Shown piece after piece: positions 23,501-60,412 of a stretch of DNA of 64,000 nt (its first letter is position 1; each line of letters starts with the position of its first letter). Origin of the DNA: Blasia pusilla (Eukaryota); contig CM114271.1 of NCBI GenBank assembly GCA_050084515.1, positions 2,356,001 through 2,420,000 on the forward strand, written 5' to 3'. The translations under genes were made by a program, and so were the position numbers. The notes beneath the pieces are model-generated. The model saw only the letters and a list, made by a program, of their open reading frames with translations. It searched no databases and was not told where the DNA came from.

Positions 23501-23595
23501 GAGGAGATTGGGAGAGACACCCTTGGACTTCTTGGGATGTTTTGCAAGTACGCCAGGAAATGATAGCCACAGCATCGAGCATGGTTCCGGGCACT
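20541..23595 (+). mobile_element. Gypsy element A' (family A fragment: gag end, PR, C5 MTase), inverted relative to A and cut off by element F
   Basis: Reverse complement of ~15820-19996 without the solo LTR; VLLDSGAQ in ORF 21585-22043; MTase ORF 22653-23645. Confidence 0.9.
22430..23400 (+). pseudogene. C5-cytosine DNA methyltransferase domain in element A'
   Basis: VLDLFGEIS (I), IDLVSFGWPYQG (IV, C changed to Y), YILENV (VI), PRLWWTN (VIII), EREQAMGF (IX), RRHVLGQAMD (X). Confidence 0.88.
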
Positions 23596-25665: not shown

Positions 25666-25718
25666 AAATCCCTACTCCAAAACGCTACAGTCAAGCTGGG
25701 TCATTGAGTTCTTTGAAC

Positions 25719-28925: not shown

Positions 28926-30739
28926 GTTCAAAGAACTAAAGGACCCAACTTGACTGAAGCGTTTTGGAGTAGGGATTTATTGGTTTCCAAGGATGGAGCA
29001 TATATTGATACTGGATGTGTGTCACCTTGCAGAGCGTACAAGATTTACTAGTGAGGAAGGCGGTGGGACTCAAATCAAGTTACATGGGACCGTTATGGTG
29101 TACCTAGGAGGAGGGCCAAGGCTCTCAAATTCCCCAACATTTTCGATCCCCGTCTAAAATTGGCTAGAGGAGCCACTTGTATCTCAGGACATTCCTTTTG
29201 TACAGGAATCTAGGAGAGTTAGGAGTAAATTTGTAGATGACGAGGCTGAAGAAATCATACACTAGATCAAATGTACATTTCTGAGCTTCCCTCGGATGTA
29301 ATAAAGGACAAGAATTTTTTGAACCATGATGGTGTTTGTAAAATTTTGTTGAATATTTTTTTGGTCCTGTTGATTGTGTTGGTCTATCTACTCAGACTGT
29401 TTATTTTGCAACCCGTCTGATTCCGATGGGTTGCAACTTTTCAAAATATTTTAAACCACTTTCAGGCAACCCGTCGGATTCCGACAATTTGGCTTGAGTG
29501 ATCCGACTCTTTCCCTATTAGTCCAACTTTTGAGGCATTCTGGCGGGCTTCTTCACTTTTTTCTCGTTCCCCTATTATCGTCAAACCATTCTTCTCTAAT
29601 TTTTCTCTTCTCTAAGACGTGTTGGATTCCTACTACATGTCGGATTGCCATTTGGGATTCCCAACCTATTGGATTGTCATGGGGTGCATGGCGGAATGGA
29701 ATCACTTCTCAAGATCCTTCTTTTGTTATTGTGTGCTTGCTTGCAAGGGGTGCAACCCATCCGATTCCGACGGGTTGCAAGAGTTGCAACCTATCAGATT
29801 CCGACGGGTTGGAAGGGGTGCAGCTTCTCGGATTCTCAGATTTAGGATCTGAATGAAGGGACATGGGTGCGTCAGTTACTCTTTAATCCTAATAGCTAAA
29901 TATCTTTTGCTTCAATTTTCCTCTCGTCTGATCATATTTTCTTCTTGATCAGTTCCTCTTTACTCCTGACACCTATCAATCTTTTGGTTCAATTGTCGTC
30001 TCGTGTGATCACATTTCTCAGTGGCAAAGAGAATAGTGAAACCAAGCTGTCAAATGCACATCAGTCCATGGTATACTTTGTGCACCCATTCATGAGCCCA
30101 CATCATCAAATGATGTAATGAAAGTCTTCGGCTACCATGAGTGACGAGCAATTTTTTCTGTGGTGGAAAACCCCCTTATGGATGAGTATTGATGCCTTCT
30201 GCAAGAAGAATCAACAATCATTTAAAGGCATTTCTTTTTGCCTTTCTTTTGCCCCTTATTGATGAGTATTTGATGCCTTTTGCAAGAAGAGTCAATAATG
30301 CATAATGTCAACCACATATTCAGAGAAGTTAAACCTTGAAGGGCACCGGAGTCAATTGAGACCATAGTTAGAGTCTTTATTTGAACCTTTCATTCAGATG
30401 AAATTGCTACTTCTTGTCAAATTATCTGCCAATGGTCCTCCAACAATAATACCCCTAGGCACAACTAACTGTAGACTTAGACAGGCAATGTGAAGAAAAT
30501 TAGGCTCATATGGAGAGTGATGGAAGAATATTTGTAGTGGTCTTATGATTTCTACTTGTTTTTCGCCCCCCGAATGTGATCCACTTGCTACTCTCTTCTA
30601 AAGATTTCATGAATTTTAAAGCAGACAAAAATTTCAAATATGTCAAAATTTTTTGAAGAGAGGAGGCGGATTCTGCCCTTTTTTTTTAAGAGAGACTCTC
30701 CTCTCTTCCTCTCTCCTGCCAGAATACCAGCCCCCGGAG

Positions 30740-38840: not shown

Positions 38841-39320
38841 TGTCACTCGTCCAAAGTTGACCCACTCTCTCCAGGAAGTACGGAAGTATATGGTGCCAAC
38901 GTATGGGAATAAGACATGGTACGTAGTCATCGATGTCTGATCTTCTATCAATGACTATCCTAGATAGAAAGAAATATCCCTAAACTCTTCCTAGTATCTA
39001 AAAATAAATATTTCAATCTGTATCTCCTATCCCGTACCTCTACAAGCTGTCACATCTTAGTCAGCTGATAGGTAGAGTTCTACCACGTCGACAATAAAGA
39101 GGTTGTTTGGATGTAAGTTTGTCTTGAGGTGTCAGATGAGGTTGATGAGAGGTCCGTTGCATCGTTTCTAGCGATTCCCTATTTTGTTCTTTTTTCAGGA
39201 GCAGGTCGAGGCTCTCCACGTGAGGGACTGCCTTGACCTCCTTCTATGTCATCTTCAGACAAGGGGGAGAGTGTAGAGCAGTGTGTTAGTGCATCATCGC
39301 ACACAATTAGTGGTCCTACC
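38841..39320 (+). mobile_element. Possible LTR of a further family followed by a truncated PBS-like sequence
   Basis: Begins TGTCA, ends ...CACACA, followed by attag-TGGTCCTACC just before the family C LTR; no second copy in the window. Confidence 0.25.
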
Positions 39321-40411
39321 ATTGTCGTGTCGAGAGCCTTTCTCTGAGTAAGGGCAGGCCTTCTAGCTGCGGCAAACGCGGTCGATGCAAGATGAATTCT
39401 CTAAGAAGATCTCCTTTTTCAATATAAAATTTTTATGTATACTCTCCATTCTCTCACAACAAGTATCACAAATGGAAGTGCCGAGGCGATCACTTCTTCG
39501 TAACATCCGACCCCGAAATTCCTAACTATAAAATCCCTATAAACTATTTTACGCTTGTATACGAGGAAGATAGCACAACTAGTATTAAACCCTACTTGAG
39601 CAGGCCTATTGACGTCCATGGATTGCTATATAAGGACATACAAAGTACAATCCTATGTCCTTCCATATGTGACAATAGGAAGGATCATCGGAGTTGGAGA
39701 TTGAATGACCTGGTTCATGAACGCCTCCCCAAAGTGATAAAGTAAATAGCGAGTGAACCAGTGCCTATCTACAAAGCGTATCTTGATATGGTTTGGATTG
39801 AGGAAAGGAAAGTCGGGCTCAACTCGTGCTCCACCCCACTCCATGCTTGACAGACATTCTCTACTCTCCTCAAGAATGGGTTTTGGCGGAGTTATTCTCC
39901 CAAGAGGGCTAATCCACTCTCATTGGGAAAGTAACAAGCCAAAACATTCACTATTTTAGTATTAATAAACTCCTCTAAGGTGACAAACCTCTCATCTCCA
40001 CACACACACTACACTCTAGAAACCTCTCGAAGAATAGACCATGGTCAAGTTACTCTCCAAAGAGGGGTGATCCACTCTCATTGGAAGAGCAAGCAATCCC
40101 AAAGTCATACACTCAAGAGTGACACGAAAGACTCAAGATGTGGAATAGAAGGTGATGAACCCTTGCTAGGAGCTTCCTTCATTTTGACTAATGTTTCTGC
40201 AATATCTTCTTCGTGCCGCTCTAGCTACTGCATTCAGAGTGCTAGGAGCTCTTTCCTATCGAGCCCGTCTTCCCACAGCAAACCCATCCAAGTGGGTATA
40301 TCTCCTTCTGCTTGCATTATCGGCTTTGGACCTGTCATCAACTCTATAGGCGTGAACCCTGTAACAATGCTGTGAGTGGTTCTATCTACCCATAAAGCCA
40401 GTCAGCATAAC

Positions 40412-41399
40412 TGTCGCGACTCTCATGACCAAACGAGTGCCAAGCGGAACATCGGAACATTAGTGGGCTCACGCTAAGATGGTTTGCGCGTTGGAGTAGT
40501 CTCGAAGAGGAGACAAGAGACGAGACGCGAGCGAGGCTTCGCGTTTCAGATATTGTGGTCGCGACCGAGAAACCTGGACCAAACGCGGAATGAGATTTGA
40601 AAGAAGTCGAGTCTAGAAAGTGGGTTGCCAAAAGGAAGAATCCGGATTTGGAACGCCACTAGCATTTGAGAGTTTCCGATTGTATTTTTAACCATAAATT
40701 TTAGCACTAAGATGCATTTGGATTAAATAAAGATGTGTTGGAAGGCTTATGAAATGCCGGTTCAAACGCACTAAAGATCTCTGCAAACGCAATAGGAGCG
40801 GTGAGAAACAACCCGAAAACGATGTAAGTGGAGTCGGGTTGAGGGCCACAATGAAGGGCCCGACCCTCCTTTTCCAAAGGGGGTTATTGGAGAACCCCAG
40901 AAGTACTAGTAAGGGGAAGATCTCGAGAGTGCTTGGAACCCGAACCCCACTTTGGGCGCCGCGGGCGCTCAAGGGCATGGAAGGCAGGCGAGTTTGGGGT
41001 TGGGTTGGAAAACCTGCACCAAGTCTAGTGAGGCGATTTTAGCGTCCCTCTTGGATTTCACCCCGCGACTCATTACTTGGGTCTCGGTTTGGAGCTCACG
41101 AGGTCCGTTGAGCGATTGGGATCGCTAGGCGCGCAAGTGCCGTTTCAGATCCCTGGACTAACCAGGAAGTCTGTTCCAAGTCTTGAAGGACTTGCCATGT
41201 TTTGGAAACTAGGAACTAAGGAAGGTTGAGCTTGATGAGACGCCGAGTTGAGAACTCGGTGGGTTGGAACGCTGGTTGGCCCAGACCCAACTAACGAGAG
41301 TGCGTGTTTGGGTGCAGATCGGTGATGAGATCGTGACCTACTGAACGTACGCTTCTGCAACACTAAAGATTGATGTTCAAGGAGAGTAGGGGCGCGACA
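40412..41399. mobile_element. Solo LTR (family E) inserted in the integrase of element C
   Basis: TGTCGCG...CGCGACA termini with 5-bp TSD ATAAC (40407-40411 and 41400-41404); host integrase continues as in the copy near 58220. Confidence 0.9.
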
Positions 41400-44379
41400 A
41401 TAACGATCTCCATACGCCTTTACCAATGCTTGAATGATTGGAAAATGTCCCCTTTTGCTCTTGCCGTTTGTCTCCGGATTCATAGAGGTTGTTAATCTCA
41501 ACTGGACTCCATATCTCTTGAAGAACTCTCGTGCTTCCTTTGCATTCAACTCACCTCTATCTACACGGATTCTCCCGACACTCCCATATCGAGCAACAAT
41601 ATCCTCTAGAATAAAACGACATATAGGCTTTGTGGTTTTAGCCCGTAAAGCCCTCCCTTCTATAAAGTTGGACAACTCTTCTCGTGCTAGGACCAGGTAA
41701 CGCATTCCCCAAAGACCTAGTGGCATAGCAACTAGATCTATAACCCATTGATGATGAATAGACAAAGGATATGTGGGTTTAAGTCCATCTCTCATCCTGA
41801 TTTTTTATTGAAACTGACATTCAACACATGACCCAACATATCTCTCAACATCCTTATATAGGCCTTTCCACCAATATCTCTCTTTTATCTTGGTGAAAGT
41901 TGCCCAAGTACCTCTGTGTCCTGCCCATAAAGAATTGTGGAATTCTTTGAGCACTTGCATTTTTGTCCCATTGTCATCCACCATCCTCAAGGGAATTCTA
42001 TCTTTCCTCTTTGGCATTTTCCAAAGATACCCATCTTGTAGAAGATAGCCATACGCCTTATGCCGAATCTCCTTGAATAACTTGTCTGTCCATCCTCCGT
42101 CTCTTTGCAGAGTGCTTAAATAGCGCCCAATTTCTTTTAACCTGCCCTATTACAAATTCTCTTTGAAGGCTATAACATCCTCTATGCCACCTCGTTCTTG
42201 AGATAACACTTGCCACACATATGCATCATCCTCATCTATCTCACTTGCCTCCATATCTTCTTCTTGACTAAATCTAGCTCTAGACAACATGTCACCATCG
42301 AGTTCTCTTCCCACTATATGCTTCAATTGTGGATTCAAGGACCTAATGTAGGCTATCCAACGTAGCATGGCTATATCTGGAGTGGTACAATTCGCAATCA
42401 TACCCAACAGAGGTAGACAATCAACCTCAAGCAATACATAGGCTCCCATGAGATACTCCTTCTCAGCTTTCATTGCAGTTACAACTCCCCAAAGCTCCCT
42501 CTTTACCTGAGGGTACCTCCTCTGTCGTTCCGTGAGTGTACGAGCTCCAAACCTTCTTGCAAATCTTCTTCGTTGTGCGTCATCCTGCCCAACTGCCCAC
42601 CCGATAGTAATAGGACTAGTATCCACTGTGATGAGAATAGGTCTTCCACATTCGTAGCTCATTTGTCGTAGAACTGGTGGCGACTTCAATGCCTCCTTCA
42701 ACTGCATCATTGCTGCTCTTTGCTTCTTCTCCCAAGTGAACTTCTTCTTCTTTCTCAACAACTCATACAAAAGATCAGATATGTGGCCAAAATGAGGAAT
42801 CCACACCTGATAAAACACACAAGCTCCTAAAAACCTTCTCACTTCGGTGACATTTTCGCATTCTCGTATCCTCCCGATGACATCAACTTTTTCTGGATTT
42901 GATTTTCGGCCAAACTCTCCACAAAGATGACCCACTACCACAATCTGAGGAACTCCAAAGCTACACTTTTCTCCAGAAAGAGTAAGATTGACCTCTTCTA
43001 GTCTTGTTAGGATCATATCCACATCACGAATATAATCAGACACAAAGTTTCTACACCCATCTTTCACAACCCTCTCAATCCTATCTTCTATTGCACATCC
43101 TTTTATAGGAATATCATCTACAAAAGGAATGGTCTTCTCAGGAATGAACTCTCTCAAGATTTTATTCATTGCACTCTGCATGTGAGCAACAAAATTTGTT
43201 GCTCCTTGAGGTAATGTGCACATTCTTACAAGCCCAAGTGGAGTGCGCATAGTGATAATATCTCTACTCTCTGTAGCTAATTGGAATTGATCATATCTTG
43301 AGTGCAAATCTCCTATAGAATAGATAGCACGGGCTGCAAAAGCTTCTGTGACTTCATCTATTCTGTGCCCCGCTCCCATATTTCGAATGGTTACCTTATT
43401 TGCATATCTTTAATGAATCGGAGAGCTTCTGATTTCTTCGACACAGTGAACCATCGACTCGAGTAAGGCCCCATAGATGGCTCTAAGATACCTATCTGCA
43501 TCTTCTCCTTCAATAACTCAATCATCTTGGGAATCATAGCTCGTGGTAATGGTATGGGTTTCAAATCCCAAGGCACATATGGAATTGTGAAAATTACCAT
43601 AAGTGCCAGCACACTCGTATCTAGACAACCAATTTCTTGTGTAGTAAAAGAGAAAGCCTTACCATGTCTCCTTAACATCTCGAAAGCTTTTTCTTTCAAT
43701 TTCTGTGAGAAACTCATCCCCTCCGATTTGCAGACGATCTAGCGTCTCTTTTGTGAACTTGTGTCCTATCTTCTTGACATCCCGCAGACTTGGCTCCATT
43801 GATGCACTTTCTACTTGTCTCCCACAACCCTCTGGTAGTTGAGTAGCCATTGGTCCCACCATCCGAGCCACTGTCTTGTATTTTGTGTGCACTTGTGCCT
43901 CCATCGGATGTTCGTCAGACTCAAACACGTGCCCATCCGCTTCCTTCTCTGTAGATTCATATTCATTTTCTCCTTCCATGAACCTTGATATCTCTTCATG
44001 CAACTCACGCGAGTGAATTGTAATCACACTTGTATCCAGCGAGTCGGTGCTCATCTGGGTAAACACCTCTTCAAGACTATCTCCAAAACCCTCTTCTTCA
44101 TACATCCCACTAATGAACTCTTCATCTAATAGAACACCCTCACATTTTAACAAACCCTCTTTTTTTTCATAAAAGGCCTTTTCTTTTCATTCATTTCTTT
44201 CATCATTGGAATCTACTAGACCATGAAGAAAAACATTGAGAAAACCCACACCTAAACATATATGATTCTACCCCTTCTACAAGCGGAAGACTCTTTCTTT
44301 TCTCTGCACCCCCATATTCCCGCTCTACAGGAGTGCTAACTAAAAATCCGAAAACTCTTTCTCTACCTTCATAGGACCA

Positions 44380-44862
44380 TGTCACATATGAGTAACCGAT
44401 AGGCCAAGATCTATCGTGGATAGGGCGTAGGAGCCAACGGACTATCTTGAGTGTAACTTTGTCCCACGGTGTCGGATGAGGTTGAGGATAGGTCCATTGT
44501 GTCAGGAACGTCGTTTCTGACAACTTTCATGTTGAGGTCTTTTACAGCCGGGTGACTTGTTGACCAGGTCACCCACCCCTGGTAACCTGTGCGCGCAGGT
44601 AACCAAGGGGAGGGCTATTTTTAGGGGAAGAGCCTTTTGGCTCTTCCCAACCCTATATAAGAGAGGAAGATGGCTTTCCTAAGCCATCTTTCTCATGTTG
44701 GGCTCTTGGAGCACCTCCCTTGTATGTGTGTGAGATAGGACTAGGGTGCTAGCGTCCGGATTCCTTGATAGCTCAGGGTGGACGAGGCTCGATATGTCGA
44801 TGTAGATTGAGGAGTGGAGTTTTAGGCCGGGTATGCCGTTTTCACTACTCTTTATTTTTACA
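44380..44862 (+). repeat. 5' repeat A1 of element B
   Basis: Near-identical to 53367-53848, ends ...ctctttatttttACA, not followed by B or by a TGG primer site. Confidence 0.9.
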
Positions 44863-47800
44863 CGAGAAAGATGTCAGGGGGCTGGTGGGAATTCGTTGTT
44901 TGCAGGTAGGCAAGCGAGTTGCCTTGGTCGGGAGCCCGTGGAGACGTTGGTTGGCGTTGTATTTATCATTTTTTCTGTTCGGAAGGCCGTGGGCGGAAGC
45001 GCTGTCTATTTTTCTCAGATTTTGTTGGTGCATAGGGATTGGGGACAGTGATAGAGTGTAGTACGGAGTGAGTGTCGGGTGAACGCGAGTGAGGGTGTCG
45101 AGAGAGAGAAGAAAAAGAGAGTTAGGTCTTGCAGCCGTCGGGGGCGTTGACGGGCGTTTAGGTCGGCATGCGCGGACGGAAGGAAGGCGACGGCGCCCCC
45201 CTTTTCCCCCCGCATTTAGGGCCCAAGGGGCCCGCATAGGGCCGCGAGCCAAGTTTCCCCCCTCCAACGTGGTAGGGGCAACGTGGTTCCGCATGGGCAA
45301 CGTGGAGGCGGGGAGGATGTCGACGTGGTGAGTGACCACCATAGTTGGACAACGGATGTGGTCGGGCAAGTCCGGATGTGGTCGGGGTCATATTCATGTG
45401 GTCGGACAGGGCGTACGTGGTAGGATTGGATCCGACGTGGGTGAGTTCGGTTGCGCAGTGGAGAGTTTTGCGGGACTTAGTGTCTCGCGAGCGTGGATGG
45501 GATTTGCGACAGCACTTTGTCGGTCGTTACGAGTAGGTTGGAGGTTGTCATATCATGTGGAGGAGTGCATGTTGACGGTGCAGCAGGTTGGAGGGCGTGA
45601 TCAGGTTACCCATTCGAGTCCCTTTTCCCGCACTTGTCGTGTGTGATTGAGAGTGCTGGGTATTGGGTTGTAGCTGGTGCTAGGTGGGTGCAGTGATGGT
45701 GACAAGTGTAGACTCTTTTCATGTGTAGCATGTTGGTGGATATACGGCGGTTGCCAAGTAGGGATCACGTGTATGACCCGAGAGAGTGTCGCTAGGTTAG
45801 GTGAGTCAATTGGGAGGCTCATGGTGAGCCTGAGTGTTGAGTGTGCGTGAGGCCGGGTATGTCATCACGGGATTGATGTTAGCATAGGTGAGCTAGTGAG
45901 GCGTGTGGGAGACTCTCGGTGAGTCTGAGTGGTTGAGCGGGTGAGATAGGGTTTGTCATCACGACATTCTTCTAGGGTTCGGAAGAACGGGATAGTGCGA
46001 GCAGTAGTAGTGGTGTGACACGGAGTGGAGTGAGATACTGAGGGGTTACCAATGAGGAGCTACCTCGACATCCATCCGTGGCTGGATCTTCATCATTGGA
46101 CACTAGGTCTGGTGACGAGATCGCAGACAGAGATAGTAGTACTTGGCAGGAGATGGACGACATGGGCCATCGGGCATGCGTGGTTTCTCGGGTGCAGTGG
46201 GCACCATCTACTTAGATGATTTTATCCAGGAGTTCGACACATGGTGCGACTTCCAGGAGATATGGACCCCGACACGGTTCAACCCTTTCATGGCATGGAA
46301 GGGGTTGTTCCAGCACTTGGAGGGTTCCTCCGATGGATGACTACATGGAGTTTTGATCACTATATTCAGTAGAGATCGATGCCTAGAGGATGTATTAGGC
46401 TCCAGGGTATGTGTCCACTAGTGGTCGCGAGGCATATGATGGGATTGTGAGAGGAGAGAGACCCACACCATCAGCCCGGAGACTAGATGGAGAGGAGGGT
46501 AGTGAGACAGGCAATGCGGCAGAGACCTCTGGTGGTAGAGGGCCACCCAGCTTCAGCCCCACAATGGAGTTCATCCGACAGTTGGGGAAGAGCTACCAGG
46601 GCGTACGCATCGACAAGCTGAAGAGTCTACAGGATTTTTAGCGATGATCGGGTGAGAGTCTGAGAGAGGCATTCACACGAATGAGGAGGATGATCATTGC
46701 TATGTTTGGAGTGATTGAGGTGTAGTCAATCCAGTATTGGTACGGGGTTCTAGACCGAGAACTACGGAGGAGAGTCCAAGATGCGGTGCTGATTCACACA
46801 GCGAAGCCCACATTGAAGGTGGTCTTTGAGTTCTCTGAGCGTATTGAGCTCAACATGAGTGAGGAGCAAGTAGTGACCACTGGATTTTCTCAAGAGTCGA
46901 CGGGTCCACGAGTGACGGTGACCCCACAAGTGCCACTATGAGCACGAGTACCACGGGAACGGGCCAGTGTGCCCAGAGAGCAGGGCGGGTACCGTGAGCG
47001 TATGAGGCAACGACCCGTACCTACATATGTTGCCCAGCACGGACCGATGTGATCTTGTTGGACGTGTGGAGGGGCCCATAGGTAGAGAGACTGCCCACAG
47101 CATGGGAGAGGACCACCAGTGCCTCCGATTGCTCAAGAGCCACAGAGGATGGCTCCACCACAGCACCAGTGTGACCATTGCCAGAGATATGGTCACACTT
47201 GGGATAGATGTTTTGACCTTCGCCGAGGGGCACGTCCAGAGGTAGGCCGAGGGCCTAGGGGCGGTCATCTTGGAGGAGGTTGGAGAGTTCTTCCTAGACG
47301 TGGTGGTAGAGGACCACCACCAGCCAGAGGAGATGGAGCAGGAGCACCAGAGCCGGCACTTCTCTCAAGCATCGATCAGTTGGAGCAGAGGATTGCTGCC
47401 ATGACGATGATGCAGCTTAAGGAAGGCACGGAGCTGCGAGCAGCTAGTGTGACTCCAGCTTCTACCTCTTACCCTGACCCGGGTGAGGATCTCGCCAGTA
47501 TGGGATTTATGTGTAGTGCAGCCCAGGTTGAGGCAGCTGTAGTGATGCACCGAGCCATCAAGAGGTGGAGTTGAGATTGACCCACTAGAGGGGACCGATG
47601 GGCGGCAGGCTAGGGTTCCACAGTCGTTCACATTGTCGGAGGCACTACACACACCATCGATGCTGCCTCGACAACCAGCGGTGCCTACAGCTCAGGCACC
47701 TACGTCGACATCACGAGGAGTTGGAGTGACAACTCCTATGCCGGCTTGAGTGGAGTCAGTGTCGACCATAGTGTTGGAGGTGGCCACCAGAGTGAGTTAG

Positions 47801-48849
47801 ACTCCACTATTTTCCGCCAAAGAGTTGGCGACGTTGGGAGTTGGACCAACTGAGGTGTTCCGGTTGGCCGCCACATTGTGTGAGCATGGAGAGATGATTG
47901 CTTCTTGTTCAGAGGTAGTTGAGGAGGTGGTGGACTTGCCATCAGAGCCGATGCTCGAGACGTTCCCCATAGAGTCATGGCATGCAGCGGCGGCGAAGTT
48001 GGTAGATATGCCAGCTCAATCGGCCATAGAGCGAGCAGTGGTGACACCTGGAGTAGTGTTACTGGATAACCGAGCTAGAGTATTTTGCTTGGTTAGTCCC
48101 CCGGGGACAGTATACCACCTACAGCTCGTCCTACTTGATTCGGGAGCGCAACCCTTGATGTTAGGGAAGGCGGCGTGTTTAGCGTTGGGGTTACGGAAGG
48201 CCATTATTGAACCTTGTCCCCTCCAGATACAGACCTCGATTGGGGGCGTGTCACCCACTCAATATATGACTCGACAGGAGATTGTTGTCAGAGTCCAGCC
48301 AGAGCATGTGACGGATAGTGCTATGGTGCGCACACGTGCGATTACGACACCACCTGAGTCGTACGATGTGTTGGTGGGGAGTACAGTGTTATATCCCTTA
48401 GGATTCATCCTAGACTTCTGGGAGGAGACCGTTGCTTATCGGCCAGCATGGCGGTCAGGTGACCGCCGGATGAGTCAATTACCCGTGCAGTTTGCGGGAT
48501 GAGGTGGTCGATCACGAGGCGAGTCTATGACCACGTTGGCAGCTTTCACAGGTAGTGTTAGCTGGCCAGGAGAGTTGTTGGAGGGGAACGCACATGCGGA
48601 GGATGTCCTTGTAGCAGATAGTCCCACGGAGAGACATGCCATGGCGGGTGTCTCTTCCCATGTTGGCGAGGCCTCTTCACCATTGTGGGGTACGACTCGA
48701 GAGCTACAGAGGAGTGCCGACGACCTCGTGAGGCAGGCGTGGAGTCATGTTTTTATCCTAGAGCAGCGAGAGTCACGTGGCGATTGGGCTCTTGGAGTGG
48801 AGACGTTGACCCCACTGGATACCACACCTGTTGTGTGGTAGTGCCCAGA

Positions 48850-49830
48850 GGAGGGTGTTAGGGTGTTAGATCTCTTCGGAGGGATTAGCATCGGATTGGC
48901 TGCACTATTGCAGGCGGGCATACGAGTGCATCGGTACCTTTATGTGGAGAGAGATGAGACCGCGCGGTGAGTATCATTACGTCACGTGGCGAGATTGGTC
49001 CAGAGGTATCCTGAGTTGTTGCCGGTATCTGCAGTACGGGGATATTAGATACGCTACCCGCCGACATCTCTTTGGTAGGGGCGCAGGATCTGGATAGAGT
49101 TGGCACCATTCATTTGGTGATTGCAAGATGGCCATGTCAGGGTCATTCATTAGCTGGCCAAGGATTTGGATTGCAGGATCCGAGGTTAGGGATGTTTTGG
49201 GAGATGCTGCGAGTAGTACGACACTTGCAAGAGAGTCAAATATATTCTCCAACATATATTTTGGAGAATGTGCCATTGTTGGGAGACACTCGTGCACGTG
49301 TGATGACGAGTGTACATCAAGTGAGGTCCTGGTTGGGACCTGCTGTGTTGTTAGATGCAACGAGAGTTGGGTCACATGCTCATCATCCACTACTGTGGTG
49401 GACGAACCTGATACCATCAGAGGTACTGAGTCCAACATACGGTGGAGTCTAGAGAGCACCACATCTCACAGTGGATGCTATTTTGGGCTGAGGGCGTCGA
49501 TCTCAGGTGGTGACACGGGATGATAGACCACCGTTGGCCATGGCCAATAGACTGGGGGAGTTGAGGGAAACCTTACCTATGTTGGTGAGCTTCCCAGCAT
49601 CCCATGCCTTTCGTCAGGGAGGGCCAGGCATGATTTGGGATGAGGTGACCGGAGCATTGGAGAAGCCTACAGCAGATGAGCGCGAGCGCGCCATGGGGTT
49701 CACTACCAGTACTACGGCGGTGCCAGGGATGACTGAGGCATCCCGGAGACAGGATTTGGGGCAGGCGATGGACCTCAACTGTCTCACATGGATAGTCAGC
49801 CTAGGTATGGCTGAGCAGAGACGGATGCGA
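48850..49830 (+). pseudogene. C5-cytosine DNA methyltransferase domain (DNMT3/DRM-like) in element B, catalytic PCQ retained
   Basis: GVRVLDLFGGIS (I), IHLVIARWPCQGHS (IV, 49129-49143), YILENV (VI), LWWTN (VIII), ERERAMGF (IX), RRQDLGQAMD (X) in canonical order. Confidence 0.92.
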
Positions 49831-52800
49831 GTATCATCCATGCCGTCATGTCCACGAGTTGGACCATTGCCTCGTGGTGGTCAATATGTATTGGTCAAGT
49901 AGGGCGAGGAGAGATAGGCACCCATGGACTTCTTGGGACGTCGTTTGAGCAGAGAGTGCAAAGGCGGCTAGAGTAGCACATGTTCATTTTTTGGATGTGG
50001 AGCATGGTGTAGGAGGTCAGAGTGGAGTGGCTGTTGCGGAGGTGGCTAGGGTTGCTACATAGCAACCAAAGCCGGAGGTTGCGTCCTCTCCGAGTGAGGT
50101 CACGATGGAGACTTGGAAGCCTGTGATAGGTCTCAAGTTGATAGGAGGAGAGCAACGGCGAGTTCATAGGTTTCTGAGAGGGCATGTGAGTTGTTTTGCC
50201 TTCTGTATGAGAGACTTGGGTACGCTGAAGGGTCCCGGGATATGGATTGAGTTGGCTAGTGATATGCCAATCTTTCGTTGACCCTACAGGTATTCTGACA
50301 AGGAGCAAGCCTTGATTCAGAGCAAGAGTCAGGACTTGTTGGAGGCAGGACTTGTGGAGTTATCACATGGGGAGTATGCATCTGCCACAGCCATGCCGGC
50401 AAAGAAGGATATGTATGGCAATTGGACGGATAGGCGAATGTGTGGAGATTACCATCCTATCAACCGACAGACGAGGTCAGATTGGTACGCCATGCCTACT
50501 CCTGAGGAGATCTGTGATGCGGTAGGGCATGCAAAGATCTTCAGTACTTTAGATCTCCGTGCTGGCTATCATCAGCTTCCTATCAGGTTGGAGGACAGGG
50601 AGAAGACAACATTTAGGGGGATAGATCGGTTCGGGAGAGATTGCTTGTATCAATGGTGGTTCTTACCATTTGGGTTGAAGAACGTGCCTTCAGAGTTTCA
50701 GAGAGTGATGGATAGTATTTTGGCTGGATTGGATTCTGTACGATGTTACATAGATGATATTCTTATCTTCAGTTCCACGGTTGAGGAGCATGAGCAACAC
50801 TTGGAGGAGGTGTTTCACGATTGCAGTTACATGGACTGAAGTTACATCCAAGCAAATGCAGATTCTTTCAGGAGCAGATTGAGTACTTGGGACACACCAT
50901 ATACCCGAGTGGGTTAGGCGTTCAACTGACAAAGGTAGAGGCTATTGCGCAGATTCCATGCCCTACAGATGTGAGTCGAGTCCGAGCATTTCTTGGACTG
51001 GCAAACTACTATCGACGGTATGTCAAGGGTTTTAGTGCGATCGCAAAGTCTTTGACCTTGTTGACGAGACTTGATCAGGTTTGGTTGTGGGGAGATGAAC
51101 AGGAGCGAGCATTTCAGGAGCTCAAGGACAAGTTGACGTCCTCACCCAATTTACAGAGACTGGTTAGGGGTCACCCATTCCAGTTACATACGGATTGGAG
51201 CATGTTGGGTCTAGGAGCAGTGCTTACTCAGAGGGATGACGAGGAGAGGGAGTTTGTTGTGGTTTACGCGAGCCGATCGAACAACATTGCAGAGGCGAAG
51301 TACATCTCCTACAAGGGAGAGTGCTTGGCTGTAGTGTGGGTTGTGGCACATTTTAGGTGCTATTTATTCGGCAACCCTTTCACACTTATCACTGAGTCCG
51401 ACAAGCTTACGGGAAAGCTTGCCAGGTGGGCTCTATTACTATAGGAGTATGAGTTTGAGGTGGTTCATAGGCCAGGTCGGCTGAACCAGGATGCGGATGG
51501 GTTGAGTCGTAATCCATGTCCGAGTCAGAGAGACGACATAGTAGCTCGATGGCACGGAGAGAGTGATGAGGAGATGGTGCCCGGTCGGCATGCATATGCC
51601 TATCTTTGTTGGTTGACTATGGCAGGTCAGCCACAAGTGATGACTCTAGTGGTGGGGTTGGATGATGAGTCTTTGGATCCGGAGGTTAGTGAGGAGGTGA
51701 CAGATGGTCGTGATATCCATGACGACGTGGAGGTTGTGGAGTTCTTGCGCAGTGGCGTCATTGTGAGTACAGTGAGTGCTAGGGAGCGGGATCGGATCCT
51801 ATAGAGAGCCAAGAGGTTCAGGTGGGAGGGGACTCACATTTTGCGGGTATGGGGAGATGGTAGGATACGAGTGGTACCTCATCCTTCCTAGCAAGCACGT
51901 GTAGTGCGACATGCCCATGAGGAGTTGGGACATTTCGAGTAAAGCGACTTACTGACTTACTCCGGTTCGATATTGGTGGCGCGGCATGCATATTGGGGTG
52001 CCGAGTTTGTGGCGGATGTATGGTATGTGACAGAGTGCGAGCATCCTTCAATGCTCCCACTCATAGATTACATCCTTTTCCGATTATGGGTTTAGGTTAT
52101 CGGTGGAGTTTAGACTTTACGGGACCTTTGCCATTGACGGGACGTCATCATCGGTACGTGTTGGTCATGGTGGATCATTTCTCCAAGTGGATAGAGTTGG
52201 TGGCGCTACCAAAAAAGGCAAGCAAGGGAACAGCTTATGCGTTTCTAGATCGTGTGCTTAGTCACTTTGGTGCACCGGCGGAGGTGTTGACTGACCAGGG
52301 TATCGAGTTCTGGGGAGAGTTTCAGGCCTTGTGTGATCAGGGGCTGATAGATCATTGCACCACGTCTAGAGATCATCCTGAGGCGGATGGGTTGGCGGAG
52401 AGAGTGGTACAGATGGTGAAGAGAGGATTGCGCAAGCAAAGCTTGCAGCGGGGACACTTGAGGGAGTGGGACCTACAGTTGCCATGGTTGGCTATGGGTT
52501 ATCGCTTTAGTCGGCAGGCATCCTTGGCGTCATTTTCACCGTACTTTTTGCTCTTTGGGAGAGAGCCAGATTTACCTGCAGCAATTCGACGTGACATGGC
52601 GGAGGTGTTAGATCTTGTTGATCTAGATGTGTGGGTACAAGCATGTTCTCAGAGAGCAGAAGTTTTTCGTAGAATTTTGCCTATGGCCTTTGAGAACTTA
52701 GCTATTGCCCAGCATACAGATACATTGAGGTACGCGACCATTCGTGGAGGAGGTTATCATCCAGGGATTAGGAGGTTTCATCCTGGAGATTAGGTGTATT

Positions 52801-53004
52801 TACAGCAGGAGGCACCCACGACGCTAGATGTCACTGTAGGGCGCACGATCCTACGTGTGCGCGAGGTATTACCGACCGGAGTCCTCATGTTGGAGGGACG
52901 GGATGGTATGGTTTGGAAGGATCATGTGCGCAATTATGTGCCATGTCATCTTTCAAACGTAGATGGGACAGTGGATCCGAGCTTGGGAGTGGTACTTGCA
53001 AGCT

Positions 53005-53150
53005 TGAGGTGTATGTTGTGCAGATCTGCGAGGGATGCAGCCACCATGTTGGTATGTGATGGTTGTTCTCGAGGGTGGCATATGTCATGTCTGACCCCTT
53101 CTCTTGATGTGGTTCCCACCGGACAATGGATGTGTCCGAGATGTGTAAAG
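53005..53150 (+). other. PHD finger at the integrase C-terminus of element B (degenerate copy at 12643-12790 in A)
   Basis: RCMLCRSARDAATMLVCDGCSRGWHMSCLTPSLDVVPTGQWMCPRC shows C4HC3 spacing with the conserved W before the last CxxC. Confidence 0.93.
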
Positions 53151-53216
53151 GATAGTAGGTCATGTCAGAGAGATGTGATATTTTCTACCTGGAGTTGGGG
53201 GGATCCAAGTGCCAGC

Positions 53217-53986
53217 TAGGGGGGCGGTTGTATGATCTCCATGTATATGTATGAGTTGATTTTTTTACATGTGTGGATCGACCCATGTGTGGGGAAGATC
53301 GGAGTTTTGTGGTGTAGATGTGACCAACGATGTATGTTGTGTAGCGATATGTATGCGCACGATAGTTGTCATATATGAGTAGCCGATAGGCCGAGATCTA
53401 TCGTGGATAGGGCATAGGAGCCAACGGACTATCTTGAGTGTAACTTTATCCCACGGTGTCGGATGATGTTGAGAATAGGTCCATTGTGTCAGGAACGTCG
53501 TTTTTGACAATTTTCATGTTGAGGTCTTTTACGGCCGGGTGACTTGCTGACCAGATCACCCGCCTCTGGTAACCTGTGTGCGCGCACGTAACCAAGGGGA
53601 GGGCTATTTTTAGGGGAAAAGCCTTTTGGCTCTTCCCAACCCTATATAAGAGAGGAAGATGGCTTTCCTAAGCCATCTTTCTCATGTTGGGCCGTTGGAG
53701 CACCTCCCTTGTATGTGTGTGAGATAGGACTAGGGTGCTAGCGTCCGGATTCCATGATAGCTCAGGGTGAACGAGGCTCGATATGTCGATGTAGATTGAG
53801 GAGTGGAGTTTTAGGCCGGGTGTGCCGTTTTTACTACTCTTTATTTTTGTTGTGTGATCTCCATGTATATGTATGAGTTGATTTTTGTACATGTGTGGAT
53901 CGACCCGTGTGTGGGAAAGATCGGTGTTGTGTGGTGTAGATGTGACCAGCGATGTATGTTGTGTAGTGATATATATGCGCACGACA
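53217..53986 (+). repeat. 3' terminal block of element B: PPT-like TAGGGGGGCGG, B1 (53229-53364), GT spacer, A2 (53367-53848), B2 (53851-53986)
   Basis: B1 and B2 are near-identical ~135 bp direct repeats ending GCGCACGAYA; A2 matches A1. Confidence 0.92.
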
Positions 53987-56290
53987 ACCATCTCTCAACT
54001 TCTCTCTATTCCTTTCATGACCTACTCATACAATAACGAATTGAATTGATCTTGTTCCATCTGACTTCTAATACGGGCATAATGAGACCCATCATCCATG
54101 ACTTTGGTCTCCATTCTAGATTCTATGATGTAAGGTTGCCCAAGAATCATAGGATAAGCATCTCCATTTTGAACAAAGAAATTTTGCTCAATTAACACAT
54201 CTCCGATACGGGTTTTGACTGATGGACAAGCACCGTAGAGTTCACCTTTTTGGTTGTTAGCCGCTCGTAGTACCCATCCATGCCATGTATCAATTGGCCA
54301 CATCCCTTTGTCGTATACACTTCGTGACATGATGTTGATCTCCAAACCATGATCAACGAGAGCCAGAACTGACTCTTGGAGAGAGCCGAGTCAAACTCTA
54401 GCCTCCGTCGTTGCACGCGCCCAATATGACCGAGAATAGTGTCCACCATTGTGTCTTTCTTCACCTTGTTCTGTCAAGGCTTCTCCTACTCTCGCCTCTT
54501 CTCCTTGTAAGTCAAGCTTTTGTCCAAAAACTTGGCAAAGCTCTTCATCTTCTTCTTTTGTGATGTCAGTATCCAATGCCCTCACCATTACCATATCTGC
54601 AGTCATCTGCCTTTTCCTTTTGATCACATCTATGATCAACTCATGAAAGTCACGTTTGGCTATGCCCAAGACTTCCCTCAAAGAAAACTCTATTTTTGCA
54701 TCCAAAATCCTTTCCTCAAGAATCTCCTTTAAATTCGTGCTTGTCTCTATATCAGACTGCAACTTGTATGTAGGAGTCTTACCCTTGGTCTTCTGGGAAG
54801 ACATCAATTCTTTCTCCTTCATTCCACCTTCTTTCATCTGAGAATCCATCATAAATTCAGATGTAGAAGGCCCTTCTTCTCTTGATGGTTGCGCCTCTGG
54901 TTGCCCTTTCCTTCTTACGGTCCTTGCTCTTCTTGCAACTTCCTCGAGATCAACACCATCATTATCGCGTCTCCTCTTCTCCTCCATACTAGCATTTTGC
55001 CAACTCACATGTTTCTCTTGTGCTAGGTATGCTTTTACACACCCAATTTCCACTGGATCATCCCATCCAGTCAGATGACGGATAGTCTCTGCCCTTCGTA
55101 TCATCACTTCTCGAGGAAATTGTAATGATTCACTTTTAGCTACAGATACAATAGGCGCTTCTATTTTTACTGCAAAGGTATCAGAATCTAATGCCGTAGT
55201 GGCAACTCCTACTTGACTTCTCACTAAGCCTTTCATTCCTCCTCTACCAAAGTTGGTATTCAACGGCATACCATTCTGCGTTGAATGAATCTTCCCATCT
55301 TTGAACTTTACTATTCCATTCCTAAGAGCTTCTGAAAACTCCTCACATTCTCGACGTTGATGTTCAACACTATTACACCATATATATCTTCTCACAAAGT
55401 TCCTACTTGTTGAAGGAGCACCAACACTAGGATTCATATTAAGTTTAAGCTCTGCCATTTCTACTCTCAATTCTCTCAAACCTTTCACCAACTCATCTAT
55501 AGCAGAATCTTCAAGTTTTGTTGAAACGGGCTTAGGCAATGGATTTGAAATTAATACCTCCAACTTGAATAGTGCGGTTCTACCTCTACTTTGATTTTGC
55601 TTTGTAAGGATAGCAACAGCTTCTTCCACTTTCTTCCAATTAGTGCTGACACCTCCTTCTTCGGTCTTGTCCGCCAACATTATGAAAAGCTTGTCCTCCA
55701 AATTCTCGTCAGCCGCCTCAAGGAATAACTCAGTTTTCCTCAAGTCTAGAGTTGCTCTTTCGGAAGAAGACAGTTGAAAAAATCGCTTCTCAAACTCACG
55801 CAATAATTCATTTGGAGTCATTCCCTTCCCTAGACGTTGCTCTATCCATTCTAAAAAACTCCTCTTAGTCACCCGATCCACATCATCATCGAAGAATTCT
55901 CCTTTCAGCAACTGCTCTTATTCCTCCCACGAGGTCGGATTTTCTCCTCTCAACTTCTTCACTTGACTACGAATCTCTAGTATTACAGCTAACTCAAAAC
56001 TTGACACCATATCACCTTGGAGTATACGATTTACCTCCATCTCACAAACGTACTCTCGAACATACTTGATGATGTTTCTCCCATCAAATCTTCCTAACTT
56101 CTTTACAATCGCTTGAAGAGCCCTTGTTGATCTTTGCTCTCCTATGTGAACTCCTCCTTGTTGGCTCAACAATATTGTCAAAGTTCGGAAAAGATCCTCA
56201 GCTCCCTCAGTTCCCATTCATGAAGTACTTCCAAAAGTAGTCATCTTGATCAGACTCCAACTTGCAAACATAATCTACCGCCTCAAAGAT

Positions 56291-56308
56291 CTCTCAGTGG
56301 AAGCACCA
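56291..56308 (-). promoter_or_regulatory. Primer-binding site of element C (TGGTGCTTCCACTGAGAG), tentatively tRNA-Thr
   Basis: Starts with TGG 2 nt inside the LTR end. Its complement CTCTCAGTGGAAGCACCA resembles plant tRNA-Thr 3' ends as I recall them; tRNA identity not verified. Confidence 0.65.
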
Positions 56309-57588
56309 TTTGTCGTGTTGAGAGCCTTTCTTCGAGTAAGGGCAAGCCTTCTAGCTGAAGAAGACGCGGTCGATACAAGATGAATTCTCTGAGAAGATCT
56401 CCTTTTTCAATATAAAATTATTATGTATACTCTCCATTCTCTCACGACAGGTATCACAAATGGAAGTGCCAAGGCGATCACTTCTTCGTAACATCGGACC
56501 CCAAAATTCCTAACTATAAAATCCCTATAAACTATTTTACGCTTGTATACGAGGAAGATAGCACAATTAGTATTAAACCCTACTTGAGTAGGCCTATTGA
56601 TGTCCATGGATTGCTATATAAGGGCATACAAAGTACAATCCTATGTCCTTCCATATGTGACGATAGGAAGGATCATCGGAGTTGGAGATTGAATGACCTG
56701 GTTCATGAACGCCTCCCCAAAGTGATAAAGTAAATAGCGAGTGAACCAGTGCCTATCTACAAAGAGTATCTTAACATGGTATGGATTGAGGAAAGGAAAG
56801 TCGGGCTCAACTCGTGCTCCACCCTATCCATGCTTGACAGACATTCTCTACTCTCCTCAAGAATGGGTTTTGGCGGAGTTATTCTCCCAAGAGGGCTAAT
56901 CCACTCTCATTGGGGAAGTAACAAGCCAAAACATTCACTATTTTAGTATGACTAAACTCCTCTAAGGTGAAAAACCTCTCATCTCCACACACACACACCA
57001 CACTCTAGAAACCTCTCGAAGAATAGACCATGCTCAAGTTACTCTCCCAAGAGGGGTGATCCACTCTCATTAGAAGATCAAGCAATCCCAAAGTCATACA
57101 CTCAAGAGTGACACGAAAGACTCAAGATGTGGAATAGAAGGTGATGAACCCTTGAAGGTCCCTCCTCTTTATATACTCACAAGAGACCCACAAGAGTACG
57201 AAATAGAGTTAATCTTATCTTGTGCCACATGGCTTCCTCTCAAGGCTTAGCCAATCATATTTTGACACAAGTAGATTTTCTCTTATCTCTTCCAAAATAT
57301 CCTCTTTTACCCACTTGATATTTTCCAAATTACCCCAACTAACCTAGCCACCAACCAATCCTACTTTTTATTTTCATTAAAGCACCAACCTCACTACTTT
57401 ACTTTTATAAAGTTATCTTTTATTTATTACCTCTTTCCTAGAGGTGGGCCCGCATAAAAGAGGCACCATAAAGACGTTTAAACATGGGGATTTCTTTTCT
57501 CTAAGTTAATTTACTTAATACTAATAAAACTCTATCTAACACTTAACGAGGAAGGGGTTTACACACTGGTTGATTTTACTATACGACA

Positions 57589-58718
57589 TTCACCCCCTCC
57601 AAACTTGCACATCCTCCGGTATGTGCCGAAAATATCGAGACTTCTTGCTATTTTACTCAAACTTATTTTTGTTGTGCCTCTAGACAGATTGAATCGAAAT
57701 CAAGAAATCCCTCACGTCTACGGAAAATCTTGACCCTTTTTCCTGCAATTGGCAATTTGAGAATTGTGCCATCTAGTTCACGTAGTTTGTAAGTGGCATT
57801 GCCAAAGCAAAGACTACAACGTATGGACCAAACCAACGACGTGCAAACTTCTTAATTGTACTATGCTGGTTGTCGAGGCTATTGTCGTGTACCAAGACCC
57901 AATCTCCTTCTCTTATAGGCTCATTCCGAAGTCGATGCGTTTTGTCGAAGCGCTCCTTATTTTTCAACCTTTGTTCCTTCATTTTGACTAATGCTTCTGC
58001 AATATCTTCTTCCCGCCGCTCTAGCTGCTGCATTCGGAGTGCTAGGAGCTCTTTCCTATCGAGCCCGTCTTCCCACGGCAAACCCATCCAAGTGGGTATA
58101 TCTCCTTCTGCTGGCATTATCGGCTTTTGACCTATCATCAACTCTGTAGGCGTGAACCCTGTAATAGTGTTGTGAGTGGTTCTATGTGCCCATAAAGCAA
58201 ATGGAAGCAATCTAGACCAGTCAGCATAACGATCTCCACACGCCTTTACCAATGCTTGAATGATTGGCGGATGTCCCCTCTCGCTCTTGCCGTTTGTCTC
58301 CGGATTCATGGATATTGTTAATCTCAACTAGACTCCATATCTCTTAAAGAACTCTTGTGCTTCCTCTGCATTCAACTCACCTCTATCTGCACGGATTCTC
58401 CCGACACTCCCATATCGAGCAACAATATCCTCTAGAATAAAACAAGATATAGACTCTGTGGTTTTAGCCCGTAAAGCCCTCCCTTCTATAAAGTTGGACA
58501 ACTCTTCTCGTGCTAGGACTAGATAATGCATTCCCCAAAGACCTAGTGGCATAGCAACTACATCTATAACCCATTGATGATGAATAGACAAAGGATATGT
58601 GGGTTTAAGTTCATCTCTCATCATGATTTTTGATTGAAACTGACATTCAACACATGACCCAACATATCTCTCAACATCCTTATATAGGCCAACATATCTC
58701 TCAACATCCTTATATAGG
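57589..58718 (-). mobile_element. Second family C copy (integrase 3' part and PPT) sharing LTR 56311-57588 in tandem
   Basis: Integrase ORFs 58328-58624 and 57773-58327 (WFGPY) are near-identical to 41400-41860. PPT GGAGGGGGTG (57591-57600) abuts the LTR. A 30-bp tandem duplication lies at the breakpoint (58659-58718). Confidence 0.88.
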
Positions 58719-60412
58719 CGATTGCACTCGTCAGGGTCATAGACACGTGCCTCAACATGGAGGAGGAGATGATGCTACACCAGGAGGTTATCACTGTGAT
58801 TATTGTGAGAAGTACAGTCACACACGCGCTAGATGTTTCAACTTACACCTTGAGTTACGTCTGGATTGAGGGCTAGAGAGGGCACTTGAGCGAGTAGTTG
58901 GTCCATGTGCGCCTAGAGGTGGTGCATCAGGTGGATCCATTGGGGGATAAGGAGTTGGAGTTTCCCCAGGTGATGGTGGAGTTTCCTATGGAGGAGGTAG
59001 AGTTCCATCACCTAGACCCGTCGAGGGAGACGTCGAGCATGAGGCTGGAATGGCTGCTCACATATAGCATCTGCAGCAGTAGATTGCCACTATGGCACTG
59101 AGGTTACTCGATGCCGAATCGGTGGCATCGACGTCATATGGTGCAGCTAGAGATATGGAGGATCTTGGTTGGATGTGTGGGATTGCCCAGATGGAGGCCC
59201 ATGCAGTTGTTATAGGTGGAGCAGCCGTAGAGTTGGATCCACAACGAGGGGAAGCCAAGGGTACAAACAAGGCTTCTTTAGTCTTTCACGTTGTCCGAGG
59301 CGATGAGGACCCCATCAATGGGTCCTGATCACAGTTCCCAGAGATTTGGTGATGTTGTTGGTGTGCAAGCACGGAGGGCGATGGGAGAAGAGAGTGCAAC
59401 AACTCCTATTGCTGATGCTCAAGAGGAGCATGTTTCGATAACTTCTATGGTGTATCGCGCTCCTTTATTTTTTGCTTCCGATATTATGATGTTGGGAGGT
59501 ACGCCCGCCGATGTTTTCCAACTGGCCGCTACGCTATGTCAGCATGGAGTTGGTGTTCTTACGTCACACTTAGGGATGATTGCAGAGGAGGTGATGGACC
59601 TGCCCTTTGAGCCTATGCTCGGGCCGTCCACATCAGATTTATGGCAGGCTGCAGCTGCTAGGATGGCGGAGATGCCCGCTAGATCCGCGATAGAGCCTGC
59701 CATGGATGCTCCTAGTGTTGTGTTACTGGAGGTCTTCCAAGTTGGTGAGTCCAAGAGATAGAGTTTTTAGTCCGCAAGGCGTCTTGTTGGATTAAGGAGC
59801 GCAGCCCCTGATGTTGGGCAAAGCGACATCCACAGGATTGGGCTTGACGAGAGCTGATGTGGAGCGTTGTCCATTTCGGATACAGAAATCCTTGGATGGA
59901 GCGAGTATCACACAGTATATCATCCGATAGGAGGTCGTGGTGAGCATTCTCGTGGGATATCCTACAGATGAGTCCATGGTGCGAGCCAAGGCGACAGTGA
60001 CCGATGTAGAGTCCTACGATGTCTTGGTTGGTGGAGCAGTGTTGTACCCGATGGGGTTTTCCCTGGATTATTGGGAGGAGGCAAGGTCCTACAGACCATG
60101 ATGGCAGTCTGGTAATGGCCGCCTTAGCTCATTACCCGTTCGATTCATCGGTGGAGTGATCGAGCGATGGCCAGGAGAGATGGCCCGGGATTGGAGATAT
60201 TTTGGTACTTCTCGCCTCTGTGTTTGGGTGTCATGAGTTAGCATGGGATTGTGCGTGTTTGTGTGTGTGTTCGGTGAGAGCGATGTATGTTGTATAGCAA
60301 TGTGTATGCGCACGACAGCCATTAACTTCCACCACGCTCTCATGCCCATAATTGGGTACTGCTTATATAAATAATTAAAAGTTCAAAAATTGAGTACTAG
60401 TTTACTAAATAA

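Follow-up and report, generated by a model that had tools for sequence, protein, structure and literature searches.

The 64,000-nucleotide stretch of the Blasia pusilla genome analysed here (contig CM114271.1, positions 2,356,001 to 2,420,000; hereafter the window) very probably holds decayed insertions of Ty3/gypsy-type retrotransposons whose Gag-Pol polyprotein carries a captured DNMT3-like DNA methyltransferase (DNMT) domain between the protease (PR) and the reverse transcriptase (RT), and a PHD finger after the integrase (INT). Self-comparison of the window resolves four retroelement copies (A, A', A'' and B) in two families, and the methyltransferase domain is found in A, A' and B. The copies, with the main parts of those belonging to family A, are located as follows.

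11681-12456, minus: 3' end of copy A, consisting of a B-type repeat (12456-12328), a 519-bp A-type repeat (12327-11809) and a B-type repeat (11809-11681).
12651-18714, minus: interior of copy A, from self-comparison.
12643-15746, minus: RT, RNase H (RH), integrase and PHD finger of copy A, from open reading frames (ORFs); 75% DNA identity to 50099-53142 of B.
15882-17046, minus: DNMT3-like domain of copy A, decayed: the frame shifts near 16660, stops interrupt it, motif IV reads PRQ and motif IX is damaged.
17322-18714, minus: gag and protease of copy A, from ORFs and alignment to the relative P0055.
20537-23596, plus: copy A', with 5' region, gag, protease and DNMT; truncated at 23596 and lying head to head with A.
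22368-23414, plus: DNMT3-like domain of copy A', in one frame with three stops, DLFGEIS and PYQ; PF00145 at 31.7 bits.
44381-53986, plus: copy B, the second family, from self-comparison, repeats and target-site duplication (TSD).
56305-60318, plus: copy A'', with 5' region, gag and protease, and a single B-type repeat joined at 60184/60189.

The DNA identity of A and A' is 87.7% (15827-17825 against 23596-21591), whereas that of A and B is 64% over PR-DNMT and 75% over RT-INT, which bears out the two diverged families recognised in an earlier reading made from the letters alone (the sequence-only reading). The three domain copies placed by that reading at 16032-16990, 22430-23400 and 48850-49830 are all aligned to the DNMT of P0055 by tblastn. 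The protease (DSG) precedes the DNMT domain in A, A' and B, and the RT follows it in A and B. Copy A'' lacks everything between the protease end and its one terminal B repeat, a deletion that takes in DNMT through integrase.

Two copies exceed the curated gathering cut-off of 22 bits for the Pfam family PF00145 (C-5 cytosine methylase), B with 32.9 bits (E 5.9e-8) and A' with 31.7 bits (E 1.4e-7), and the profile check suggested by the sequence-only reading is therefore positive. The two open pieces of A, searched singly against Pfam, gave no match; against P0055 they align at 55-62% identity. P0055, an intact Marchantia relative, was used as the tblastn query on the window and delimits the A' domain at 22368-23414 in a single frame (61% identity, three in-frame stops), the B domain at 48764-49045 and 49039-49878 in two frames (65-66% identity, four stops, one frameshift near 49040) and the A domain at 17046-16663 and 16658-15882 in two frames (55-62% identity, at least four stops, one frameshift). 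Motifs I and IV are as follows, the motif codons having been read directly.

16965-16945, copy A: motif I, DLFGGIS.
48869-48889, copy B: motif I, DLFGGIS.
22449-22469, copy A': motif I, DLFGEIS, with Glu for the second Gly.
16707-16690, copy A: motif IV, GWPRQG, codon CGT (Arg).
22707-22724, copy A': motif IV, GWPYQG, codon TAT (Tyr).
49126-49143, copy B: motif IV, RWPCQG, codon TGT (Cys).

Motifs VI (ILENV), VIII (..LWWTN) and X (R..LGQ.MD) are present in all three copies, both arginines of motif VIII being lost in B, whereas motif IX (ER..AMGF) is legible in A' and B only, the copy in A being damaged. The observation that motifs I, IV, VI, VIII, IX and X follow the protease in the three copies is confirmed, with this damage to motif IX in A. 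The catalytic PCQ is kept in B, with the C to R change in A and the C to Y change in A' as first read, and as CGT and TAT are different single-base changes of the same codon, the losses in A and A' are independent. All three DNMT copies are pseudogenes, and none in the window could encode an active enzyme. Judged by profile and motifs, the domain is nonetheless a real C5 cytosine methyltransferase domain inside the Pol of gypsy-type elements.

That two families carry the domain in the same position, and that relatives have it within a single ORF together with CCHC, protease, RT, RNase H and integrase, shows that it belongs to the element. The protein P0281 (2318 aa) is one such ORF, with CCHC, aspartic protease (PF13650, at the same position as the protease of B), DNA_methylase, RT, RNase H and integrase; P0082 (2188 aa) is another, with CCHC, DNA_methylase, RT, RNase H and integrase and no Pfam match to a protease. 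The window is a dense repeat nest with truncations and inversions, a setting in which a host DNMT3 gene or pseudogene, foreign to the element, might have been broken by nested transposons and come to lie beside Pol by chance. Such a juxtaposition is refuted by the three copies from two families with the domain in the identical position and by the relatives with single gag-to-integrase ORFs, and is also opposed by a TSD and empty-site reads that enclose the entire element B; moreover, no introns were found in the domain in the window pieces, and no PWWP or ADD match was obtained from Pfam in the window pieces or in eight long relatives. We regard it as so improbable that it may practically be set aside.

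Element B is the most complete copy in the window, and its parts, all on the plus strand, are as follows.

44376-44380, plus: 5' TSD, ACCAT, read directly.
44381-44859, plus: terminal repeat A1, resembling a long terminal repeat (LTR); 95% identical to 53367-53848.
46152-47565, plus: gag with CCHC knuckle CDHCQRYGHTWDRC, in two frames; tblastn to P0055 residues 2-449.
47801-48502, plus: aspartic protease, LLDSGAQ; ORF aligned to the protease region of P0055.
48764-49878, plus: DNMT3-like domain, decayed, PCQ kept, motif VIII arginines changed; PF00145 and P0055 alignment.
50282-51444, plus: RT (YIDD) and RNase H; PF00078 E 1.9e-20, PF17919 E 1.4e-29, PF17917 E 2.8e-22.
51921-52793, plus: integrase core; PF00665 E 2.6e-16.
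52794-53219, plus: PHD finger, C-terminal of the integrase; PF00628 E 1.2e-11.
53227-53362, plus: repeat B1, directly after the polypurine-tract-like AGCTAGGGGGGCG; 93% identical to 53849-53984.
53367-53848, plus: repeat A2.
53849-53986, plus: repeat B2, the 3' terminus, ending CGACA and followed by the TSD ACCAT at 53987-53991.

The order PR, RT, RNase H and DDE integrase, together with a gag that carries a CCHC knuckle (read in the ORF 47086-47574), is that of Ty3/gypsy; the gag gave no Pfam match at E<=0.01, and the protease piece gave none. The ends of B are not two equal LTRs, but are arranged as A ... B-A-B and bounded by the 5-bp TSD ACCAT, where the start of A1 (TGTCAC) counts a T at 44380 that may equally be the last base of the TSD. 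A1 (479 bp) and A2 are 95% identical (Kimura two-parameter distance, K2P, 0.048; 22 substitutions in 479 aligned sites), and B1 (136 bp) and B2 are 93% identical. The same B-A-B order is seen at the 3' end of copy A (12456-11681), whose two B repeats differ by a K2P of 0.066. The B repeats of the two families end in 36-40 nearly identical bases, which recur with at most six mismatches in 6 of 80 metagenome relatives. The complete layout is found in the metagenome locus L045 (A1 5999-6321, B1 14774-14888, A2 14893-15205, B2 15202-15316), which carries the same polypurine-tract-like word (AGCTAGGGGGGCG) before B1, a word conserved across families and hosts. RNA reads that join 44380 directly to 53992 number 70, 60 and 92 in three runs (X19-X21); these reads represent the uninterrupted site and so fix the limits of the insertion. 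Element B went in whole, duplicating 5 bp of its target, and is laid out as A-coding-B-A-B. As the empty-site reads are RNA, a copy or allele without the B insertion is transcribed; in these reads (44300-44380 joined to 53992 onward), the first-mate bias points to minus-strand transcription.

A conventional reading of these ends, in which the LTR would be A+B and the 5' LTR damaged, was rejected as less simple, there being no B-like sequence after A1. It is also disfavoured by the TSD and the empty-site reads, which bound the element by A1 on its 5' side and B2 on its 3' side, and by the same layout in L045. No tRNA genes were found in the 64-kb window, nor a convincing tRNA primer-binding site behind A1, where an unassigned TGG... 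stretch lies 22 nt downstream. The element pairs A-coding-B-A-B ends with integration by a DDE integrase and a duplicated target site.

The domain is DNMT3-like, both by sequence profile and by the fold of the model predicted for an intact relative. Against all sequences in the PDB, the profile built from 15 relatives matches DNMT3A best (E 4.7e-12), aligned from motif I to VIII with a weak second stretch over motifs IX-X, followed by DNMT3B (E 3.9e-9), tobacco DRM (E 5.5e-7), DNMT2 (E 7e-5) and M.HhaI (E 2.7e-3), and no DNMT1 rows appear up to E 10. An AlphaFold model made from a 32-sequence alignment for P0002, an intact relative, is confident, with a predicted local distance difference test score (pLDDT) of 91.3 and a predicted template modelling score (pTM) of 0.89. 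Its Foldseek matches in the PDB, down to rank 50, are all DNMT3A, 3B or 3C (best E 5.2e-19), and isolated methyltransferase-domain chains align to the model with template modelling (TM) scores of 0.78-0.85 by target and 20-23% identity. The element domain therefore appears to have the catalytic fold and motif order of the animal host enzymes DNMT3A and 3B and of plant DNMT3, but is without PWWP and ADD, embedded in a Gag-Pol polyprotein and only ~20-23% identical to human DNMT3A/B in the structural alignment. The original label 'DNMT3/DRM-type' can be kept in its first half, on the strength of profile and fold, and not in its second. Plant DRM enzymes are distant DNMT3 relatives, but are circularly permuted, with motifs VI-X before I-V, whereas the window domain is unpermuted (I, IV, VI, VIII, IX, X); the alignment to tobacco DRM covers only profile positions 24-150 (motif I-IV), on the C-terminal part of the DRM chain, as expected of a permuted enzyme.

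The ratio of nonsynonymous to synonymous change (dN/dS) was calculated by the method of Nei and Gojobori, with bootstrap ranges, for the coding parts common to A and B.

DNMT, 381 codons: dN/dS 0.19 (bootstrap 0.10-0.27).
Protease, 181 codons: dN/dS 0.16.
RT-RNase H, 473 codons: dN/dS 0.12.
Integrase-PHD, 455 codons: dN/dS 0.32.

With synonymous sites saturated between A and B (dS 1.78 for DNMT) these ratios are rough, but dN lies far below dS, and they indicate that the domain was maintained by purifying selection while the two families diverged. Neutral evolution of the domain between the families, its absence from most members and a failure to match C5-methyltransferase profiles, each of which the sequence-only reading had named as speaking against it, were not found; the ratio it had proposed to calculate between A and B (0.19 for DNMT) is that of a domain that is not neutral. 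The loss of the catalytic Cys in two of the three window copies, and of both motif VIII arginines in B, could also be read as the mark of a catalytically dead module of the DNMT3L kind, or of a passenger, without a methyltransferase role in the life cycle of the element. We consider this improbable, since 32 relatives, 31-76% identical to P0002, all keep the C and Q of PCQ, the E of ENV and one Arg of motif VIII, and since the A-B ratio is low. The Cys and Arg changes are decay, given the stops and frameshifts in the same copies.

Relatives of the element are widespread in liverworts and mosses. A word-indexed protein search started from the open 338-aa piece of A' gave 51 proteins close to it in length and 19 that are longer, and a 32-sequence profile search gave 81 long proteins. 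Among the matches listed, Marchantia polymorpha accounts for at least 17 cluster representatives, M. paleacea for one, Calypogeia fissa for five, Sphagnum troendelagicum for two and S. fallax for one; the green algae are represented by Haematococcus lacustris (two), Cymbomonas tetramitiformis (two) and Chromochloris (one, a EukProt label), to which a cluster look-up adds two 'pol' proteins named as Scenedesmus sp. A distant 'Skav' row (E 6.3e-10, 29% identity) is the sole dinoflagellate-like one among the matches listed. An exhaustive profile search counted 4077 cluster representatives up to E 1e-3, of which 322 lie at E<=1e-30, and the best 150 all lie at E <1e-48, many of them being polyproteins of 1000-3456 aa.

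The kind of element is already known, having been described, in the literature searched, only for a charophyte alga and for dinoflagellates (Gypsy-DNMT3, 2018). According to de Mendoza et al. 2018 (PMC5890265), KnitGypsy-Dnmt3 of Klebsormidium nitens combines a DIRS repeat structure with a gypsy domain composition, and the arrangement A-coding region-B-A-B is that of DIRS by the definition given there. Compared by that published description, the window elements have in common with KnitGypsy-Dnmt3 the gypsy domain set, a non-rearranged DNMT3-related domain in Pol, the A-coding-B-A-B ends and the trace of selection (Ka/Ks < 0.2 on the domain there, 0.19 between the window families here). They differ in that the described host is a charophyte alga whereas the nearest relatives of the window element lie in liverworts and mosses, and in the PHD finger after the integrase, the term 'PHD' occurring 0 times in the main text of PMC5890265. 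SymbioDIRS-Dnmt3 of dinoflagellates, as presented in the same article, likewise has a DNMT3-type domain in Pol and A-coding-B-A-B ends, but uses a tyrosine recombinase in place of the DDE integrase (PF00665) of the window element, whose insertion also duplicated 5 bp of target. In two later papers PMC5890265 is the reference given for 'streptophytes (Gypsy-DNMT3)', and a full-text literature search without supplements and subscription journals gave no DNMT-bearing retrotransposons of land plants beyond the 2018 paper and its citers. The repeat layout, equal to that of KnitGypsy-Dnmt3, is the best evidence for a common origin, and the window elements most likely belong to the same lineage as the Klebsormidium Gypsy-DNMT3, as we infer by way of the published description.

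A quick maximum-likelihood tree of 35 transposon DNMT domains, in which the window copies carry X at the breaks and from which a very partial Sphagnum fallax row was excluded, groups A, A' and B with copies from liverworts, mosses and moss-like metagenome loci as a clade of 12 rows (Shimodaira-Hasegawa-like approximate likelihood ratio test, SH-aLRT, 99), outside a Calypogeia-Sphagnum-Marchantia subclade (SH-aLRT 96). The algal copies with the order RT-RH-DNMT-INT-PHD form their own clade (SH-aLRT 98), and the root of the tree is unsafe in that it rests on one very long branch. This second order is that of the Haematococcus and Cymbomonas proteins and of P0098 and P0101. The DNMT lies between RNase H and integrase in the chlorophyte elements P0244, P0277, P0098 and P0101, and before RT in the window clade, P0281 and P0082 (behind the protease wherever one is detected), so the domain has been shuffled within Pol.

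The two positions, PR-DNMT-RT in the window and P0281 (CCHC-DNMT-RT in P0082) as against RT-RH-DNMT-INT-PHD, imply that the domain moved or was captured more than once, and might also mean that it was taken independently from a green-plant host DNMT3, or passed between elements, the resemblance to Klebsormidium being convergent. This is unlikely, yet is the alternative that deserves most weight: recurrent independent acquisitions are argued for in PMC5890265, and no Klebsormidium row occurs among the matches listed in the word-indexed and profile protein searches. Against it stand the unusual combination of A-coding-B-A-B ends with a gypsy domain set, common to the window and to the published Klebsormidium description, and the homology of the DNMT domains of both architectures, which match one profile at E 1e-117 to 1e-134 and fall into one tree with supported clades. 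Of the persistence in land plants first proposed, the presence in liverworts and mosses is well supported, and continuity with the charophyte elements is probable from the published likeness in repeat layout.

The PHD finger (PF00628) is also found after the integrase in copy A (12643-13380, minus, E 6.2e-8), and in P0098, P0101 and the Haematococcus and Cymbomonas relatives; the full-text search described above found no PHD-integrase elements in bryophytes. The solved PHD fingers nearest to that of B are those of CHD4, PHF12, KDM5, PHF21A and AIRE, several of which read the unmodified H3K4 tail. Chromoviruses are gypsy elements with a chromodomain after the integrase, and resemble the window elements in the fusion of a chromatin-reader module to the integrase C-terminus, although their reader is a chromodomain and that of the window elements a PHD finger. 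From its likeness to the PHD fingers that read H3K4, the finger could guide integration, as the chromodomain does in chromoviruses.

Three stranded RNA runs under the same species label, mapped at >=90% likeness, gave 890, 905 and 1027 reads, of which 36, 33 and 35 are at least 99% alike and 627, 602 and 720 are 90-95% alike. The reads span the whole interior of B, at a depth of 0.7-6.8 in the three DNMT bins, with a strong first-mate-on-minus bias that would mean sense-strand RNA of the element if the library is of the usual type. The family is transcribed at a low level, mostly from copies other than this locus. A DNA run under the same species label holds very many pieces of the family, with joints equal to the solo-A and single-B forms of family B.

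Several of these results weigh against the interpretation given at the outset. No copy in the window is intact, and the catalytic Cys is lost in two of three. As few as 3 of 80 metagenome relatives keep an ORF of at least 438 aa with all five motifs under a crude filter, so most copies elsewhere are dead too. Besides the saturated dS between A and B, dN/dS between A and A' is 0.60 (0.40-0.95), a relaxed ratio that fits selection before insertion mixed with free decay afterwards. Most RNA reads, being 90-95% alike, derive from other copies, and Klebsormidium is missing from the listed matches. Finally, a feature search in the ESM Atlas with P0002, which returns 'C5 methylase', scores phage methyltransferase clusters equal to a streptophyte cluster; the phage clusters are not borne out by the profile and fold searches.

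The surroundings of the copies are rich in repeats. A (15827-20002) and A' (20537-23596) form an inverted pair whose match extends into the 5' flanks (19714-20002 against 20825-20537), and which for this reason looks more like an inverted segment duplication than two insertions. Over the aligned blocks of A and A' (15.9-17.9 kb and 21.6-23.4 kb) there are 185 differences, of which 115 are transitions, 39 of them in CpG context, as expected for methylated, decaying repeats. The ~2.4-kb 5' region of family A (56305-58690; 18711-19719) recurs as a separate copy at 39318-41864, which contains a 1-kb piece (40407-41404) also found beside the gag of copy A in opposite orientation, in the manner of a repeat nest. 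Another repeat family has inverted copies at 23596-24144/30735-30181, 24355-25302/29930-28983 and 25651-26000/28993-28644, and encloses (23596-30735) unassigned ORFs at 25.7-27.9 kb. The only clear host gene seen is that of a KUP/HAK-type potassium transporter (K_trans) with several exons (1744-4212, minus), whose ORF is grouped by the ESM Atlas with K_trans clusters, mostly of Streptophyta.

In active copies, the protease would release a free methyltransferase of ~350 residues without the regulatory PWWP and ADD parts of host DNMT3. These parts restrain and target the host enzyme. As a Pol product, the enzyme would be present at cDNA synthesis and integration, and our best guess, offered tentatively, is that it methylates the new DNA of the element itself or its surroundings and so sets the chromatin state of new copies, which might take the form of a gene-body-like CG mark or of a self-limited copy number; the integrase-borne PHD finger would select the chromatin for insertion. 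The suggestion in the sequence-only reading that the enzyme is packaged and methylates the cDNA or the target site is speculation, and the discussion in PMC5890265 leaves the role of a retrotransposon DNMT open. A wider view, possible but somewhat doubtful, is that of one old gypsy lineage from chlorophytes to bryophytes, with a DNMT3-like writer shuffled in Pol, a PHD reader and DIRS-like repeats, whose members would still be active in land plants including Marchantia polymorpha and would write part of the host methylome.

Transposons are usually the targets of DNA methylation, and an element with its own de novo methyltransferase reverses this relation. The window places the design in a streptophyte genome where the nearest relatives of the element lie in bryophytes; Calypogeia, Sphagnum and four genera of chlorophytes hold relatives as well. 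Also of mechanistic interest are the PHD finger behind the integrase and the pairing of DIRS-like repeats with an element that uses a DDE integrase and duplicates its target. The relatives in Marchantia polymorpha (at least 17 clusters) make a transposon-borne DNMT3 testable in a genetically tractable land plant, where it may be asked whether the DNMT3 of the element writes methylation, in which context, and whether this is a help or a restraint for the element.

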